A DNA stretch of 64,000 bases. Origin: a virus. This document shows positions 1,739 to 20,363 of the stretch, piece by piece. The position numbers and the translations under genes were made by a program. The notes under the pieces are model-generated. The model was not told the origin of the DNA. It ran no database searches and worked only from the letters and a program-made list of their open reading frames with translations. Within the stretch, counting starts at the first letter, position 1; every line of letters begins with the position of its first letter. The stretch is taken from IMG/VR virus record IMGVR_UViG_3300038466_000014; one strand, written 5' to 3'.

Positions 1739-4315
1739 CTATTCATTTTCTACATTTTCATCCAATGTTAAATCAATTCCTTTATCGATCAGCCAGTCTC
1801 CCATCTGAATGAATATAGAATCGGTATCTGTATACAAAAGATACTTTATTAATTTCTCTTTATACCCTTCGGCAAATTCAGGATCAAAGTTTATCTCATT
1901 TGTCTTCATATACTCAGAAACATGATATCCGAGAAACTTAATTACTTCCTGTCCGGTAAGAGTAATAGACATTGCCAAATCATAGTTAAAGAATCTGAAT
2001 CCGGAATTTGCCAATACTCCATATAGGGCATTAGCCAAAATTTTATAAGCTGTTTGAATATTGTTATAATATTTCTCTTGTTCTTTCTCTTTACTTTTAA
2101 CATATACCTTCATCATATCTTTATATGTAGTACGCGAATCCATCAGATATTTCAGAATACTGTAAAGAAATGATAGCTCCTCATCATGACCTTTATATAT
2201 ACATCCGTTTATGGTTATAATATAATTATTGTCTATAATCCATTTTTCAAATTCATTATATGTAAATTGTTTTTCAATCATATTGTATAAAGGATCTAAA
2301 TATACTATAAAGTTATCTTTGTATCTGGATTGAATTTTATGTATAAAGTAATATGCCACATCTGTATCTACTTTCGCTACAAATGTATTTGGGCCTATGT
2401 TACAGCTTCTGACAATAGACGGATATAGAGACGTAAAGTCAAAGTCTATAACCCATTTATGAATTCCTGGTATTGGTTTTCTCACCACTGCTCCAGGAAT
2501 CTTAAACTTTTCTCCGATCTTAGGTCTGTTTCTGCATACACAATTTGAATTTTTGGCGTAAGACAACACCAGAGGATCCAGCAATCCAGTAGTGGTTTCT
2601 GCGGATCCCCAAGATGACGCGCAAATACGAATCAATTCATATTGTAACGATATATGTCCAAGTTTCTTGTCCAGTTCGTATAGAAGATCTGTATCGGTCT
2701 GCGAGTATTCCACGAACTTATGTATATCCTGTTCATATACGTGATCCAAGGTTCCTTCATAGGCAACTTTATCTTTTGATATATTTACTTTGGCTATGTG
2801 GGATAATTTATATGTGGGTTCTTTTCCCTGAGCAAATTTCTTATATAAAAACATCATATCCGGTATAGCTATTCCCGCTATATATGCCTTTTTAATATTG
2901 TTTATATCAAAACTCGCTCTTCCGACAGGAGAAATCTCGTTGAATGATATATGATTCTTTCGCATCCGCATAAACAAGGTTGGTATATCGAATGTAGATG
3001 TATTCCATCCTGTCAATATATCGGGCAATTCCGATTTCAATACTTTTATAAAATATAATATTAATTCTTTTTCAGTATCGAAAATTTTAACATCTTTATT
3101 ATCTAAAGATACCCCTGAATTTTTTATAACCCCTATGTCGTATATCAGCACCTGTGTAGGAGTATCTCCCATTTTATAAGATATGGCGTTTATCGGCGCA
3201 AGAGCGGTTTCCGGTCTGGGAAATGATTTTTTATGATCGTTCCACACCTCCATATCCCAATACATAGTCTTAAGATTGTAATTCTTTTCTGATAAATTTC
3301 TGAGAGTTTTCTGATAAAAATAGTCTATGGAATGTCTAAGATTTTTTTGCACATCGAATTCATATACTCCTACCTCATCACTTGGTTTTGTATCGAACCG
3401 GACAACGGCGTTTTCAACTTTTTCGACAATATCTGAAAAATCGAATGGTTTCTTTCCCTCGTAAAAATATCCATGATCACTCGATAATAAGTAAAACTTT
3501 TTTTCTTTTGTTTTAGCATTAACAAATGTGAAACAAATCTCTCTGGTCGCCTTTAAATTTTGACAGTCAATATATATCATATCGGGATCAAACATCCATT
3601 CCGGATAATTGAAATAAGTTATTGAATTATTTACTATAGAGTCCGGGGATTTATATTGCATTATATATTTAACGGCACTCTTAAAATCATTTAGAAATGA
3701 TTGATAGTCCTTTGTAAGTTTGCCATCAGTAGTTCTTATACCGCCATTTCGTTTCACGTAGGATGGGTGTGTCGTAATCATCACATCTCTTCCTTCAAAC
3801 TTATGGATCGTCCCCCCTTCCTGTGTTATCTTTTTAACGGATATACCAAGGGCTTTTGCTGAAGAATTACCCATGGCTAAAATCAATTTAGGATTGGTTA
3901 TTTTTATAATCTCAAGAAGATTGTTTCTGCAAAATGTATACGCCTCCTCTGGAGGATTTGCAGTGATCCATTTTTTTCCTTTTTTAGATAAGTTCGAACA
4001 TAAACATACATTGGATATGAATAGATTCAATTTACTCATTCCTGATTCAGTTTCCGCCGATCTGTATATGCTTCCGGCTCCTCCGATCAAAGGTCTTCCG
4101 GATTGCACTTCCTCATAGGCTGGAGCTTCTCCAAGGACCAGAATGTCTATATCTCTAATATACTCTCTATTACATTCTCCAGGAACTATCGGTTGTTTAT
4201 ATAAAGGACAATCGAAACAATTGGTAAATGGGGACTTCGGATTACTAATATTTCCCTCCTTTATAAAACAATTAAAATTTGAAAATCCTGTCAGATCTTG
4301 GCACCAGTCCAACAT
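1739..4315 (-). CDS. polB: Family B DNA polymerase, N-terminal subunit, fused to family-4 uracil-DNA glycosylase (UDG-exo-palm/fingers)
   Basis: UDG motifs CFDC, GEAP, SNVCLC, HPS. Exo motifs WDMEV, GWN..FD, YSQTD. Pol motifs DFTSLYPS, KILANALYG, YTDTDS. Stops about 25 aa after motif C. Confidence 0.92.
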   Translation of the reverse strand: MLDWCQDLTGFSNFNCFIKEGNISNPKSPFTNCFDCPLYKQPIVPGECNREYIRDIDILVLGEAPAYEEVQSGRPLIGGAGSIYRSAETESGMSKLNLFISNVCLCSNLSKKGKKWITANPPEEAYTFCRNNLLEIIKITNPKLILAMGNSSAKALGISVKKITQEGGTIHKFEGRDVMITTHPSYVKRNGGIRTTDGKLTKDYQSFLNDFKSAVKYIMQYKSPDSIVNNSITYFNYPEWMFDPDMIYIDCQNLKATREICFTFVNAKTKEKKFYLLSSDHGYFYEGKKPFDFSDIVEKVENAVVRFDTKPSDEVGVYEFDVQKNLRHSIDYFYQKTLRNLSEKNYNLKTMYWDMEVWNDHKKSFPRPETALAPINAISYKMGDTPTQVLIYDIGVIKNSGVSLDNKDVKIFDTEKELILYFIKVLKSELPDILTGWNTSTFDIPTLFMRMRKNHISFNEISPVGRASFDINNIKKAYIAGIAIPDMMFLYKKFAQGKEPTYKLSHIAKVNISKDKVAYEGTLDHVYEQDIHKFVEYSQTDTDLLYELDKKLGHISLQYELIRICASSWGSAETTTGLLDPLVLSYAKNSNCVCRNRPKIGEKFKIPGAVVRKPIPGIHKWVIDFDFTSLYPSIVRSCNIGPNTFVAKVDTDVAYYFIHKIQSRYKDNFIVYLDPLYNMIEKQFTYNEFEKWIIDNNYIITINGCIYKGHDEELSFLYSILKYLMDSRTTYKDMMKVYVKSKEKEQEKYYNNIQTAYKILANALYGVLANSGFRFFNYDLAMSITLTGQEVIKFLGYHVSEYMKTNEINFDPEFAEGYKEKLIKYLLYTDTDSIFIQMGDWLIDKGIDLTLDENVENE

Positions 4316-5060
4316 CCTCAGACAGCGGTTTTAAGAAATTGGATATACGTATATCCCAGGAAAATTCAATCATCTTATCAATATCTATTATGTAATAACT
4401 CGGAAGAAATTCCTCTTCGTATGGCATAGCAATAGCATTTCCAATTTTAATTCCTTCATCTATTAATTTCTTAATCCTGTCAGGAGATTTCATATAGTTA
4501 ATACCCTCAATATTAAACATATATCCTTTAGTACCTTGTTCGAAATATGGATATTCCAGTTTATTCCATAATTTCATACTTCTAATATGCATCGTCTGTG
4601 TTTTGTACTCATCATCATTTTTATTAAAATGGACAGGACGGGCAGCCTTCTTACTTCCTTCCAAAATACCAGTGATAAGTATTTCACGAGAGTCTGTTAT
4701 GAATTTAGCAATCTTTTTAAAATCTATATAGTATTCTCTAACAAGCATATCGAGTAACATAGACAATCTTTCTTTAGTAAATTCGGGATAATCCGATCTC
4801 CTAACCTCAATACCTTTATTCTCCATTTTATCCACAGGATCTTTTTCTTTATTTATGATGTGCAACGAATATTTCTTTCCCACTCCTGGGAAATATCCGG
4901 TATCTGCGACTAATTCCTGTTTGGCGTCAAAAAGATTGAACTTATCTTTGATATTATGTTTTCTGCCAAACTCCAGCGCTATAGGTACAATCGCGTTGGC
5001 TTTTATATTTTCAGCCTCTTTTAAAATAAGCGCAACGAGGTCTTCTTTTTTGATGCTCAT
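4272..5060 (-). CDS. polB: Family B DNA polymerase, C-terminal subunit (palm end and thumb)
   Basis: KQELVAD..GKKYS and KGIEVRRSDYPEFTK are the PolB motifs that follow motif C and are missing from 1739-4315. Confidence 0.85.
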   Translation of the reverse strand: MSIKKEDLVALILKEAENIKANAIVPIALEFGRKHNIKDKFNLFDAKQELVADTGYFPGVGKKYSLHIINKEKDPVDKMENKGIEVRRSDYPEFTKERLSMLLDMLVREYYIDFKKIAKFITDSREILITGILEGSKKAARPVHFNKNDDEYKTQTMHIRSMKLWNKLEYPYFEQGTKGYMFNIEGINYMKSPDRIKKLIDEGIKIGNAIAMPYEEEFLPSYYIIDIDKMIEFSWDIRISNFLKPLSEDVGLVPRSDRIFKF

Positions 5061-5200
5061 CGGGCACCGCCCGATGATTCCAGTTGAACCGCCTTTTCGG
5101 AACTCTGGTTTGGCGGACCACCAATAGACCGCACGGCTGAAACACTGTGTCCAACCGTTTGCTCATAGAGAAACCACCCATTGGCAGAAACATTAAAGGC
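5050..5200 (-). ncRNA. Predicted TnpB omegaRNA (right-end RNA); 5' limit approximate
   Basis: Inferred from established IS605 biology: the scaffold overlaps the tnpB 3' end and right end. The guide would be the flank AAAAGAAGACCTCGTTGCG. Confidence 0.5.
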
Positions 5201-6049
5201 CGCGTTTGAGTCTCTATGGTCAAAGTGAGAACATGAACATTTGTAGTTCTTTCCGTTTGGTTTGTTGATACTTCCGCACCTTGAGCAAACCTGACTTGTA
5301 TAAGCAGGATTTACGAAGAAGATTGGTATGCCAAGCAAAGATGCTTTGTATTTGATAAAGGTTTCCAAAGCAAAACGATGTGATTTGGCATAGTCAACAA
5401 CGGAACGACTCACTTTATGATTGATATCTTTAACTCTGTTTGACTGTTTACTTCTGATTTTCTTTAAAGCATCTTTAGCACCTTTCTTTTGTAAGTTCTT
5501 TCTTCTATTGCGGAAACTTTTAGTTATTCCAGACACATCTGGACCTAACTTCCTAACCTTTCCAGACATAACATCCGCACAAACCACAACATTCTCCACA
5601 CTGTTTCTATCAACTCCAAGAAATCCTTGAATTTTCTGTTCTTGTAAAACAGGAGTGTTGTAAGAGTAGGATATAAACCATTGCCCATTTCTTTTGAAAA
5701 ACTCTGCCTGTCTAATAAAACCAGAAATGGTTTTAGGAAATACAACAGGCAAAATAGATTTTTTGAAGAAGGCTGGGATTCGAATACCACCATCTACAAT
5801 CTTTACTTGTTTTCCTTTATCACCGCAAACAGGTAAAACAAGATTTTTGACCTGCTTGATCTTTTTGTTTCTCTGATATTTAGAAATAAGACTTTTAGCA
5901 AGAACACAAGGTATCTCTTTGTAATATTTAGAAGAAGATTTAGTTCTGTCTTCTATCATTCTGTTTACACAAACAGAAGCTTTTTGGTATAACTCGTCCA
6001 AAATAGGAGTAAGATTGTGAGGTATAACGACCTTAAAAGTAAGACACAT
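5057..6049 (-). CDS. tnpB: TnpB RNA-guided nuclease homologue, probably inactive
   Basis: RuvC-I GVDRN, Zn finger TSQVCSRCG..CSC and RuvC-III HRDSNAAFN present. The RuvC-II (IVLEDL-type) segment is not seen between AKSHR and LETFIKYKA. Likely start ATG 6049; frame is open to 6127. Confidence 0.88.
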   Translation of the reverse strand: MCLTFKVVIPHNLTPILDELYQKASVCVNRMIEDRTKSSSKYYKEIPCVLAKSLISKYQRNKKIKQVKNLVLPVCGDKGKQVKIVDGGIRIPAFFKKSILPVVFPKTISGFIRQAEFFKRNGQWFISYSYNTPVLQEQKIQGFLGVDRNSVENVVVCADVMSGKVRKLGPDVSGITKSFRNRRKNLQKKGAKDALKKIRSKQSNRVKDINHKVSRSVVDYAKSHRFALETFIKYKASLLGIPIFFVNPAYTSQVCSRCGSINKPNGKNYKCSCSHFDHRDSNAAFNVSANGWFLYEQTVGHSVSAVRSIGGPPNQSSEKAVQLESSGGAR

Positions 6050-6415
6050 TGTAAGTTCTTTCTCGTATACCATGTTGTGTTTGTAACCAAGTTTCGCTAT
6101 AAAATTTTCCATCAACACATTCTCCAAGATTTGATTTTAACTCTTCCAGAAATGGCTAAACAAATGTCTGTAAATATTTCTGAAATAAACGGTGAAGAAG
6201 ACCACATACATTTTCTTTTGGAAACAACACCACAAGACAATCTTGGTGGTGTTATAGGGGCACTAAAAGCACGGTCTTCTTCGTATCTACACGACAAATA
6301 TATCTTTCCATATTTGGGAAAACATTCCAGAACTCTTTGGTCTTCTGGGTATTTTATAGTATCCACTGGCGGTGCTCCTTTAGATGTTATTAAAAAGTAT
6401 ATCCAAAACCAATAA
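6017..6415 (+). CDS. tnpA: IS200/IS605 Y1 HUH transposase
   Basis: YHVVFVTKFR, HUH motif DHIHFL, LWSSGYF and catalytic YIQNQ. AGGAG SD before the GTG start. Confidence 0.93.
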   Translation: MRYNDLKSKTHCKFFLVYHVVFVTKFRYKIFHQHILQDLILTLPEMAKQMSVNISEINGEEDHIHFLLETTPQDNLGGVIGALKARSSSYLHDKYIFPYLGKHSRTLWSSGYFIVSTGGAPLDVIKKYIQNQ

Positions 6416-6488
6416 TAAGTATTAAATCCTACTTGTCAAGAGCCTAACCCCGAACACCGTTCGGGGATTGCGGCTCTAATACTGTTGA

Positions 6489-7154
6489 TTACACCTCCGT
6501 ACCAACCAATAGCTCCAGGTCTATATCACTATGATCCGAAAAAAATCTATCATTATCAACTTTTATATTTTTATTAAATAATTTCAAATAGTTTAACATT
6601 GACATAAGATCATCTTTATTATCTTCTTTCTCTATAATATCATTCACCGCCTCTAAAGCCAAATATTCTTTCCCGGATAATTTTTGTAGTTCGGATAGTT
6701 CCTTCTTAGAAATCTTTTTCTTTTTGTACTCGTTTAACTCCAAGTATTCCATCACCCCTGAATCGTTTTCTTCTTCTATTTTTTTAATCAATAGCTGTAA
6801 TTCGTATTTTTTTAGTAGTGGAAACTTCTGATGTAGATGTTGGATTTTCTCATCCACAGACGTAAATTTGAAAAACGATAAATCTTCTTTCTTTATATTA
6901 TAATACCGAATAAATTTCTTAAAGTATAAGAAAAATTCTGTATCATCTAATTTAAAAATATTATAATCGTTAAAATAATCATTTATAAAATCTGTTATAT
7001 TATCCATATAACCAAACATTGCTATAACAGATCTTTTTGATATTTGTTTTTGGATAACTGGATCGAGTGGAACATTTATAGGCTGATATAATAACCAATA
7101 TTTGAATTTAGCATATGGAGAATACTGTTTACCGCGTTCTTCTCCACCACTCAT
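6489..7154 (-). CDS. Hypothetical protein
   Basis: 221-aa ORF in the operon upstream of the polymerase genes. Confidence 0.7.
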   Translation of the reverse strand: MSGGEERGKQYSPYAKFKYWLLYQPINVPLDPVIQKQISKRSVIAMFGYMDNITDFINDYFNDYNIFKLDDTEFFLYFKKFIRYYNIKKEDLSFFKFTSVDEKIQHLHQKFPLLKKYELQLLIKKIEEENDSGVMEYLELNEYKKKKISKKELSELQKLSGKEYLALEAVNDIIEKEDNKDDLMSMLNYLKLFNKNIKVDNDRFFSDHSDIDLELLVGTEV

Positions 7155-18084: not shown

Positions 18085-18532
18085 TTACCGGGCTTTTCGA
18101 TTTTCGATATTGAATGTGGATATAAACAATAAAATCTCCTCGTCCGGCATTACATCATGCGCGTCGATGTAGTGAGCATACCCTTCCGGCCACAACCAGA
18201 AACGCCCGCTATCGTCCAGTAAACTATATTCATCGTTTCCATTCATCTGTCCGCAGATTCTACAATCACTACATCCCATATGAATTAATTATGGCTACTT
18301 CATTTTCTATCCTGTGTAGTTTCGTAAGAAACAAGAATTTGAATTCCCCTCGGTTTATCCCATCTGATTTACATCTAACCCGAAGGGTATCTTTTTCCGG
18401 ATAAGGTAGTTCCTCTGTCGAATTATAACAACTTCTCCAGAAGCCGACTTTCTTTTTATTTGTAAATCCTAATAGATTTACCATTTGTTTTATTTTCATC
18501 GTGATTGCCAAGTATAAGGTGCTTAGTACCAT
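18085..18532 (-). pseudogene. Frameshifted conserved hypothetical gene
   Basis: VGFWRS..LPYP half and MGCSDCRICG..WPEGYAHY half meet at TCATATGGGA; restoring one AT gives SYMGCS. Confidence 0.55.
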
Positions 18533-18743
18533 TAAGTTTCTCTAAAACCCTTCGTACATTCGTTAAGCGGCGTTCAAATGGCATAAAATCACCAAGCATA
18601 AACACTGTATCATCTTTTTTTACTTTACGGTTGTGCTTTTCAATAAGCACGATGTTCATTTGTTTATAATCTTTAAAGGGTCTATTACAATGTCTAATAA
18701 TACTTCCGTGGTCATAGTGCTGATCCGATGTAAAATACAACAT
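18456..18743 (-). pseudogene. Truncated metallophosphoesterase
   Basis: TSDQH, LGDF and LGNHD present; the ORF ends before the C-terminal His motifs. Confidence 0.65.
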
Positions 18744-18745
18744 TA

Positions 18746-19375
18746 TTAATATACTACCTTATTATCTTCTATTATCTTAATAATAGAATTAATCATCTCA
18801 TCGGTTATAGTATTACTAATATTTGTAAGATAATTTGACAGTTCCGTTATATAAGCAGGTCTATTTCCTCTATCCATAGACTCAATCCTATCTTTTTCTA
18901 GAGGATCACATGCACCAATATGTAATAGCAACATCTTATTAATATACTTATATGTATAAAAATAAATTGCCACAAGTAATTTTAATAAATCCTTATGTGA
19001 CCATTGTTCTATATGAGGAATCATACTAATATTATCAGCATCAAAACTTATACTATAATGTAATAACCACTCATTAGAAATACCACCAACCTTCTGCATA
19101 TTACGTATGTCTAAAATAATACCTACCAACATTCTTAATTTGTTCTGCATAGATGTATCTTTAGGTAGTGGTATTATACAACGATTAATAGTAGAGCCTA
19201 AACACGTTTCAAATTTGCATAACTTTGGTATATAAAAATCATCTATCTTACAAGTACTAATTGTTTTAAAAATAAGACTATTATCATCTATAAGTTTCTT
19301 TACTACTTTGAGTATTATATCAGAGTTATAATGGTATGTATCCAAGTCAATGGGTGTCATATATTTGATGTTCAT
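18746..19375 (-). CDS. Hypothetical protein; start codon lies in the mini-IS right end
   Basis: 209 aa. ATGAACATCAA is the right end of the 147-bp element. Confidence 0.65.
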   Translation of the reverse strand: MNIKYMTPIDLDTYHYNSDIILKVVKKLIDDNSLIFKTISTCKIDDFYIPKLCKFETCLGSTINRCIIPLPKDTSMQNKLRMLVGIILDIRNMQKVGGISNEWLLHYSISFDADNISMIPHIEQWSHKDLLKLLVAIYFYTYKYINKMLLLHIGACDPLEKDRIESMDRGNRPAYITELSNYLTNISNTITDEMINSIIKIIEDNKVVY

Positions 19376-19511
19376 TGAATACCTCCCGATGATTCCGGTC
19401 TGGAGATCTCCGGCCTTTCGGCGTGAGTTCCAGCGTTAATGATCAATTTAATCCTCCTTGTTTACAGAGCCTAACCCCGAACACCGTTCGGGGATTGCGG
19501 CTCTAATACTG
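19365..19511 (-). mobile_element. 147-bp non-autonomous derivative of the IS605 element
   Basis: First 46 nt are identical to the IS left end. Ends GGAATCATCGGGAGGTATTCAATGAACATCAA versus IS GGAATCATCGGGCGGTGCCCGATGAGCATCAA. Confidence 0.88.
19372..19446 (-). CDS. 24-aa mini-ORF inside the mini-IS (TnpB C-terminus-like end)
   Basis: AAGGAGG SD, TTG start, MIINAGTHAERPEISRPESSGGIQ (TnpB ends ESSGGAR). Its TGA overlaps the downstream ATG. Confidence 0.55.
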   Translation of the reverse strand: MIINAGTHAERPEISRPESSGGIQ

Positions 19512-19825
19512 TTCATATAATCGCGCCCATATAAATTTGATTTTTTATTTAAAATGGCACACACAAATTCTATTAATCTGTATTTCGCGATAGAAATATC
19601 TCCGGTAGTTATAATATAAGGATTACCAGCATTATCCAAATATACTTTGTCGAGAAAAATATCTAAAATTATTTCCTCTTCTTTCAATCTTTTATATTTA
19701 TCAACAATCGTATATTTTACTTTAATATTTTCCTCGGTTAACATCTCTTGTTTATATAATCCTTGAGTAATTTTAAAATCTGTATCTATTAGTTCGACCG
19801 AATGTGGCTTTGTAATATTATTCAT
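19448..19825 (-). CDS. Hypothetical protein; C-terminal ~21 aa encoded by the mini-IS left end
   Basis: Reads through the left-end hairpin. In frame with 18746-19375 once the element is removed. Confidence 0.6.
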   Translation of the reverse strand: MNNITKPHSVELIDTDFKITQGLYKQEMLTEENIKVKYTIVDKYKRLKEEEIILDIFLDKVYLDNAGNPYIITTGDISIAKYRLIEFVCAILNKKSNLYGRDYMNSIRAAIPERCSGLGSVNKED

Positions 19826-20363
19826 TATCTATCCTATCTTCGTCTTCAAATGACTTTAGATATTCATAGATGTGAAATTCTTTTTCAAGACATTCCGGTA
19901 ATTCTTTAGCGTTTTCCACACTATCCCATTTATAAATAAGATCCACTCCATCTTCCCATATACCAGCAAATCCCATACCCGATTCGTAATACATAGCATA
20001 AATATTATACCCTTGGGATTGTAGTTGTACAAATGCTTCTATTGGCGGTGCCCATGCGGTGTATCCCCGTATCTCCAATGTATTATCATCTACCCTCTTC
20101 ATTTCCACCCCGCTTAAATCCCATTTAGTTCCCCAATTAATTTTTCTCCATTCATCCGCATGATAAAATCCATATTTTTCTTTTAATTTATTCTCTCTTT
20201 CGGCTCCAAATGGTGGAGTGTCATCGATCTCATCGTCACACAATTCTTTAGGACAAGGTAACAGTGATTGTAATACTTGTTTTTTATCACCATTAAAAAT
20301 CATATCTATAAGATCAGAATTCCCGTTGGATAGTGAAATGAAATTGTTGCAAAAATTAGGCAT
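19818..20363 (-). CDS. DUF1281/Api92-like ferredoxin-fold protein
   Basis: MPNFCNN, WRKINWGTKWD, TAWAPP and YYESGMGFAG. Confidence 0.75.
   Translation of the reverse strand: MPNFCNNFISLSNGNSDLIDMIFNGDKKQVLQSLLPCPKELCDDEIDDTPPFGAERENKLKEKYGFYHADEWRKINWGTKWDLSGVEMKRVDDNTLEIRGYTAWAPPIEAFVQLQSQGYNIYAMYYESGMGFAGIWEDGVDLIYKWDSVENAKELPECLEKEFHIYEYLKSFEDEDRIDNE

Follow-up and report, generated by a model that had tools for sequence, protein, structure and literature searches.

IS608 and ISDra2 belong to the IS200/IS605 family. They use TnpA for peel-and-paste transposition and carry a TnpB-omegaRNA system. IStrons are group I introns fused to IS200/IS605 tnpB elements.

Palindrome-associated transposable elements (PATEs) are gene-less derivatives of IS200/IS605 elements (PMC3119063; 10.1101/2023.03.14.532601). 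In Aeromonas phage Aeh1, nrdA is split by mobE, a case of 'genes in pieces' (PMC3045599; PMC2988022). Rickettsia palindromic elements (RPEs) are intragenic MITEs, and in-frame cases are known (Ogata et al. 2000; PMC10969869).

The locus described here was found in a window of 64,000 nucleotides, the whole stretch of viral DNA that was analyzed (IMG/VR record IMGVR_UViG_3300038466_000014); the public protein record of the downstream ORF described below is from one 180,230-bp contig. The window is AT-rich (about 27 to 35% GC) and phage-like. At the locus, a GC-rich patch lies between two minus-strand ORFs, the N-half and the C-half, which are separated by a 147-nt mini-element (Table 1). Most genes surrounding it are on the minus strand. 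PATEs, omegaRNAs, intragenic in-frame MITEs, and phage genes in pieces are known; the mini-element is a single instance in an orphan gene. In an incomplete coverage of the literature, we found no paper on an IS200/IS605 end that supplies a start codon and none on a gene divided by a PATE into coupled cistrons.

The mini-element resembles PATEs in having IS200/IS605 left and right ends and no coding gene. It also inserts 3' of a TAM without target duplication, and an autonomous tnpA-tnpB relative is present in the same genome. Unlike typical PATEs, it lies inside a phage coding region and has a degenerate right-end hairpin, and it is probably no longer mobilizable. It also keeps too little of the right end for a typical omegaRNA and bears two strong Shine-Dalgarno (SD) sites. 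Its family shares the end plan of IS608 and ISDra2, with subterminal hairpins, a left TAM, a right TCAA-type motif, and strand-specific insertion. It differs from them in two respects: its TAM (WTGAA, usually ATGAA) includes a start codon, and a replacement ATG in matching phase is built into the right end, where it overlaps the stop of tnpB. The Aeh1 nrdA/mobE locus likewise has a mobile element in a phage gene and two separately translated halves, with the insertion providing a stop and a start. In Aeh1 a homing-endonuclease gene is the intruder in the gene of a known enzyme, whose reassembly was demonstrated, whereas here a transposon relic of 147 nt interrupts an orphan gene whose halves might assemble. 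RPEs are also palindromic, non-autonomous elements of about 150 nt that are tolerated in ORFs and have a length that is a multiple of three. They are translated through as in-frame peptides, whereas the mini-element, with its two TAA codons in frame, divides the ORF into cistrons. IStrons are, like the mini-element, IS200/IS605 relatives that limit the damage of insertion into genes. They restore the gene by RNA splicing; the mini-element has no intron (no Rfam match), and rescue would be by translational re-initiation.

Table 1. Features of the split locus and of the resident full-length element
Feature	Coordinates	Strand	Remarks
N-half ORF, 125 aa	19448..19825	-	104 native codons (...GRDYM) plus a 21-codon element tail; stop TAA at 19450-19448
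TAM ATGAA, target motif of the mini-element	19512..19516	-	ATG in frame with the N-half; Met-104 of the reconstructed 310-codon ORF
Non-autonomous IS200/IS605 element (PATE)	19365..19511	-	Left end plus short right end; lacks a transposase gene and a target duplication
Mini-element left end	19466..19511	-	46/46 identical to the resident full IS (6484-6439)
Imperfect palindrome AGAGCC...GGCTCT in the left end	19504-19466	-	Intact; folds in predicted structure
AAGGAGG, Shine-Dalgarno-like	19453..19459	-	Six nt before TTG at 19446
24-codon ORF, TTG start	19372..19446	-	Ends ESSGGIQ; TGA at 19374-19372
Degenerate right-end hairpin CATCGGGAGGTATTCAATG	19373..19391	-	Stem lost; GGAGGT and ATG exposed
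C-half ORF, 209 aa	18746..19375	-	ATG AAC ATC AA (3 codons and 2 bases) element-derived, remainder native
TCAA, right-end terminal (transposon-encoded) motif	19365..19368	-	Closing bases of the mini-element
Resident full-length IS200/IS605 element	5050..6484	-	Source or relative of the mini-element's left end; linked by repeat finding
Resident tnpA	6017-6415	+	Pfam Y1_Tnp, 1.6e-29
Resident tnpB	6127-5057	-	Cas12f1-like TNB, 2e-18

The mini-element is a real non-autonomous IS200/IS605 element, a PATE. It runs from 19511 to 19365 (CAGTATT...CATCAA) and is exactly 147 nt long. Related elements were gathered by exact-pattern scans of viral and metagenome contigs. These gave full tnpA-tnpB relatives (L001/L002, L004, L005, L030, and L031), tnpB-only elements (L003, L032, and L033), and other gene-less mini-elements (L029, 320 nt; L036, 201 nt). 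Nine independent sites read WTGAA (once ATGAG and once ATGAT) followed by the element start CAG. The 3' terminus ...GATGAGCATCAA was constant across the right ends aligned. Because the ends agree across the nine sites, the boundaries at 19511 and 19365, the length of 147 nt, and the lack of target duplication follow. The junctions are TGAA followed by CAG... on the left and ...CATCAA on the right, and the flanks are not duplicated, so that TAM, transposon-encoded motif, and absence of target duplication and of terminal inverted repeats are as in PATEs. An extended left-end motif (GCGC upstream of the TAM at 3 of 10 sites) was considered and judged to be chance.

Profile HMMs for the left and right ends were trained on eight other copies with the mini-element excluded. 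They matched it from 19511 to 19446 (E = 1e-17) and from 19411 to 19365 (E = 8e-5). The first-pass annotation had called a 147-bp mini-IS here, and the 46/46 left-end identity, these independent HMM matches, and the nine-site boundaries bear it out. It had also suggested looking for further mini-copies; the same scan of the window matched only the full-length copy besides the mini-element and found no further copy.

The left-end palindrome is homologous to that of the autonomous element, and a Y1 TnpA is encoded in the same genome by the resident tnpA. At the right end, about 68 nt of right-end sequence is retained in all, and the last ~47 nt are diverged. Sequence homologous to the hairpin for TnpA is present there with its stem lost, which makes the mini-element a degenerate former member. 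Directly upstream of the hairpin, the right end is nearest L036 (47/49 identities). Since the left end is that of the resident copy and the right end is nearest L036, the mini-element did not arise from the resident element by a simple internal deletion.

Other insertions of the family showed features of their own. L003 (2005-3226), a 1,221-nt tnpB-only element, and L036 (2871-3072), a 201-nt PATE, are both on IMGVR_UViG_3300009087_000006. L036 has a different left-end hairpin (CCACGAGCATCGCTCGTGG), the TAM ATGAT, and a right end nearly identical to that of L003. The unlike left ends and near-equal right ends suggest modular end exchange within the family. Near 2005, L003 interrupts an ORF in frame, ten codons short of its stop; upstream of the insertion this ORF stays open for at least 218 codons. 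The element swaps the C terminus of the host protein for residues encoded by its left end and is a second intragenic in-frame case. L004 and L030 have a common right flank (TGGCGTGTTGCAGCATAT) and unlike bases before the TAM (GCATTGAA versus TCCATGAA). The L004 insertion site adjoins a tRNA-like sequence.

Compared with L001, L004, L005, and L031, the resident tnpB is shortened by an in-frame deletion of 84 nt. The deletion takes out IVLEDLGKISKK...QWSFYQ, the region of the RuvC-II glutamate, and 28 aa including IVLEDL are gone. Because this region is deleted, the resident TnpB is probably nuclease-dead.

The first-pass annotation had proposed that the mini-element might supply a second omegaRNA. 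In this reading it would be kept as a source of omegaRNA whose guide, ATATATGACACCCATTG, directs TnpB in trans against the uninterrupted allele, which TnpB would cut or, if dead, repress. PATEs often encode omegaRNAs that act in trans (10.1101/2023.03.14.532601), and in the empty allele the 17 nt past the right end are preceded by a TAM. A complete scaffold next to the guide was not found, however. The ~68 nt of right end left compare with about 140 to 260 nt in the PATEs L036 and L029. The upstream stem-loop common to L003 and L036 (GCTCGGATGGAGCCTCGAA) is missing, the terminal hairpin adjacent to the guide is destroyed, and the only TnpB in the window lacks the 28 aa that include IVLEDL. An Rfam search of the window matched no family. 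We regard a role as guide carrier as extremely improbable, and with the short right end, the lost hairpin, and the shortened TnpB, the second omegaRNA is unlikely.

The resident full-length IS is flanked (6485-6491, minus strand) by ATCAA, unlike the ATGAA of the family. The ATG inside its right end opens the thumb ORF (262 aa) of a DNA polymerase. If that C were a G, the junction GGAGGTGTAATGAA would provide the thumb gene with an SD site and a TAATG stop/start overlap. Together with the ATCAA flank, this suggests that the left-over start codon mutated after insertion. The polymerase is of family B (1739-5060, minus strand) and is divided between two ORFs whose order is permuted. The thumb ORF (5060 to 4272; PHROG 262 positions 598 to 823) lies upstream of the palm ORF. 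The latter, a UDG-exonuclease-palm ORF of 858 aa (4315 to 1739), ends right after YTDTDS and overlaps the thumb ORF by 44 nt.

When positions 19365-19511 were deleted by script, one 310-codon ORF was restored, with no internal stop and with the sequence ...GRDYM-K-YMTPID... across the join. The element-free junction reads ...GATTATATGAA followed directly by ATATATGACA... in silico. Precise removal of the intruder thus gives a single ORF with a stop only at its end, and the first-pass claim that 19448-19825 and 18746-19375 join in frame (about 310 aa) was reproduced. The insertion point is an internal in-frame Met-Lys (ATG AAA) of the reconstructed ORF. The distance from the TAM ATG to the left junction is 5 nt, and that from the right-end ATG to the right junction is 11 nt. 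Both distances are 2 mod 3, so the two ATGs have the same phase relative to the downstream flank in every copy of the family. Because of this family-wide congruence, the in-frame join does not depend on the 147-nt length.

The native open frames comprise 104 codons in the N-half and 206 codons in the C-half, in AT-rich DNA. The 103 open codons that precede the element lie in stop-prone DNA of ~27% GC, where their occurrence by chance is very unlikely. The upstream ORF and the TAM ATG share one phase, and there are zero stops ahead of that ATG. The N-half and C-half were very probably once a single 310-codon gene, because two genes would have to share a frame by chance and then undergo a stop-loss.

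The other history is that the element hit the start codon (ATGAA) of a 207-aa gene and that an upstream 104-aa gene later lost its stop. Three of the four sampled insertions with a long ORF behind them (L001, L031, and the resident full copy) occupy a start codon, and genes in the neighborhood are mostly 100 to 220 aa. The N-half also weakly matches an 85-aa PHROG, but at E = 0.19 the match is not significant. Because the upstream ORF shares its frame with the TAM ATG and has no stop, an extra and unmotivated stop-loss would be needed (for example, TAA to TAT at 19519-19517). In addition, the 20 nt before the TAM ATG contain no SD-like 4-mer. We therefore hold a two-gene origin to be quite unlikely and a single ancestral gene to be the better reading.

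The first-pass annotation had suggested a search for an unsplit homologue of about 310 aa. None was found in ~5.8 billion proteins or in 1.8 billion representatives. Searches with the C-half returned only the query itself from 5.8 billion proteins, phage records (tblastn), and 1.84 billion representatives (HMMER). Protein searches with the N-half, longer and near-length proteins included, found no homologue. The N-half, the C-half, and the in-silico join had no tblastn match in 28 related loci. Pfam and PHROGs, searched at E values up to 5, gave only non-significant matches (phrog_19624, E = 0.19; MCM6_C, E = 0.036). The ESM Atlas model of the C-half has a pLDDT of 0.39 and no usable structural neighbor. 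Because no homologue, split or unsplit, was found, the one-gene reading is based on the logic of the sequence.

In related phages, the homologue of the neighboring 181-aa gene is followed downstream by an unrelated membrane protein of ~110 aa and then by a metallophosphoesterase of ~300 aa. No counterpart of the split ORF was found in these syntenic relatives. In the window, a metallophosphoesterase ORF of 95 aa (18456-18743, minus strand) matches positions 31 to 115 of the 245-position phrog_547 and retains DxH, GD, and GNHD. It may be a truncated or frameshifted gene. The overlapping ORFs that follow it (18532 to 18269 and 18279 to 18085) had no matches. At the start of the N-half (19816-19830, minus strand; ...GATAATGAATAA...), an ATGAA overlaps the stop of the 181-aa gene and is an empty potential target site.

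The order of translation signals at the locus is compact. The N-half TAA is followed after 1 nt by the TTG of the 24-codon ORF, which leads into the C-half through an ATGA overlap (TGA at 19374-19372, ATG at 19375-19373). A GGAGGT at 19386-19381 lies five nt ahead of this ATG. The reading of the first-pass annotation that the upstream ORF runs through the left-end hairpin and stops at the TAA at 19450-19448 was reproduced. So was its arrangement of AAGGAGG ahead of a 24-aa ORF that ends in ESSGGIQ with its TGA overlapping the ATG. A 5-mer SD precedes 24% of 74 long ORFs compared with 4% of random 20-mers, and the phage therefore uses SD sites. No promoter or terminator signal above shuffled expectation was found between the N-half and the C-half. 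The public gene call for the C-half begins five codons later (P0001, 204 aa). With the stop, SD, and start signals that the element supplies in this order, translation of both halves would be possible.

Two other ways of expressing the locus were considered and rejected. Ribosomal bypassing between the ATGAAC repeats (19516-19511 and 19375-19370) was dropped, as no stop follows the take-off codon. Stop-codon reassignment was dropped, as table 11 leaves long ORFs intact, the longest reaching 993 aa.

Several of these signals are family traits. All aligned right ends finish ...GCCCGATGAGCATCAA, and the ATG sits in the 3' arm of the terminal hairpin. The tnpB frame of the family (...LESSGGAR*) stops at a TGA that overlaps the right-end ATG. 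Residues 6 to 24 of the 24-aa ORF (GTHAERPEISRPESSGGIQ) align with the tail of the L003 TnpB (TETHAVKPEIFRLESSGGAR; ...THAVKPEIFRLESSGGAR*). The donated ATG with its stop overlap is therefore present as the first-pass annotation described it, but it is not special to the mini-element, since all aligned right ends have both the ATG and the ATGA overlap. The idea of a purpose-built relay ORF was given up, as codons 6 to 24 are a relic of the TnpB C-terminal tail. The ORFs downstream of L001 and L031 have the TAM ATG as their first start codon and are re-opened by the ATG of the right end (192 codons and >37 codons, respectively).

Other features were found in the mini-element only. Its right end (CATCGGGAGGTATTCAATG, 19391-19373) differs from that of the resident copy (CATCGGGCGGTGCCCGATG, 5076-5058) at five positions. 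A sixth change lies just past the hairpin, where ATGAGC became ATGAAC. These six substitutions are in the last 20 nt, are all GC-to-AT, and affect positions that are invariant in eight other aligned right ends. The predicted hairpin energy goes from -15.3 to -2.4 kcal/mol. One change turns GGGCGGT into GGGAGGT at a distance of five nt from the ATG, and no other single substitution would give this result. The first-pass claim that five substitutions break the stem and create GGAGGT 5 nt before the ATG was confirmed, with the sixth adjacent change added. With the family-type and the real end placed in the same context, the mean unpaired probability from -14 to +5 around the AUG rose from 0.21 to 0.46, and access to the initiation region in the mini-element is thus still only 0.46 on average.

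The left end also has a change. TTGACAAGTAGG became GTAAACAAGGAGG, which removes the TGA that ends this frame in the resident copy, yields AAGGAGG, and leaves as the stop a TAA that precedes the TTG by one nt. At the position of AAGGAGG, the left ends of other family members compared have AAGTAGG or more divergent sequence. No further SD-bearing right end was found in viral contigs, and that of the mini-element is a single copy among the collections searched. No donor of the GGAGGTATTCAATGAAC patch was found within the window.

The changes are clustered. There are 6 in 20 nt at the right terminus, compared with 2 in 49 just upstream (against L036) and 0 in 46 at the left end (Fisher p = 0.006 and 0.0003, respectively, for a region that was chosen post hoc). 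This bears on another account, in which the PATE killed a dispensable orphan gene. The SD-like motifs, like the short ORF and the open halves, would then be incidental, and the hairpin would have been lost by AT-biased mutation or in one complex event at a hairpin hot spot. All six of the changes are GC-to-AT in an AT-rich genome, the direction expected of neutral decay. The split gene has no recognizable relatives or function. The ATG, the ATGA overlap, and the short ORF were inherited and did not evolve at this locus, and there is a single instance. Against decay, the changes are uneven, with none in the 46 nt of the equally GC-rich left-end palindrome and with 2 of 49 upstream set beside 6 of 20 in the hairpin and tail. 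One of them is the sole single substitution that makes GGGAGGT from GGGCGGT, and 104 plus 206 codons are still open in stop-prone, AT-rich DNA. Neutral decay accounts for the direction of the changes but not for their clustering or for the intact halves. We consider simple decay of a dead gene unlikely, though less so than a two-gene origin.

The right-end changes fit selection for translation of the distal half. Selection is suggested for one lineage only, because one SD-bearing right end was found anywhere searched. We infer that both halves may be translated and still useful and that the changes may have been selected. The domesticated element, tuned for downstream translation, that the first-pass annotation described is likewise something that we infer from one copy. 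The decay of the right-end hairpin predicts loss of mobilization in trans, and the six changes probably immobilize the mini-element.

The explanation that we favor, and that we think is rather likely as a whole, is that insertion of the PATE split a 310-codon orphan gene and that its right end then became an initiation site. The host gene would be an orphan in an AT-rich, uncultured phage of roughly 180 kb. The PATE would have inserted by single-strand peel-and-paste directly 3' of an in-frame ATGAA. Its outward-facing right-end ATG would keep the distal part translatable as a separate cistron that begins Met-Asn-Ile-Lys. The outcome would be three tightly linked cistrons, the N-half, the 24-codon tnpB relic, and the C-half with 206 native codons behind Met-Asn-Ile. 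Ribosomes that end the N-half at the TAA could restart one nt on, six nt after AAGGAGG, and the tnpB-relic cistron would carry them to the ATGA of the C-half. Six GC-to-AT changes, arising once the element was in place or already in its direct precursor, would have melted the hairpin that buries the ATG and created GGAGGT. These changes may raise access to the start site and free the C-half start from coupling. Loss of the hairpin would also remove the structure that TnpA needs, and the element would therefore now be fixed. A stronger claim is that selection made this IS200/IS605 relic a fixed intercistronic translation module and that the phage makes a working two-piece protein. We advance it tentatively, as possible and as clearly less probable than the split itself.

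Phage genomes are almost wall-to-wall coding, and a landing transposon usually kills something. The ATGAA target and the phase-matched exit ATG let the family occupy start codons or internal Met codons without silencing what lies downstream. The mini-element indicates that this start-codon trick may work without any transposon gene and that an end sequence may later evolve from a transposition hairpin to a plain ribosome-binding site. If confirmed by expression data, the locus would be a compact natural case of mobile DNA that makes new intercistronic junctions as well as genes in pieces. A rule for annotation would also follow, in that ORFs starting M-(S/N)-I-K beside ...GATGA(G/A)CATCAA would be truncated or split genes. 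If the reading as a translation module is true, then, taken with the right end by which the family replaces start codons, it would show that the family persists in gene-dense phages by being non-polar and not by avoiding genes.
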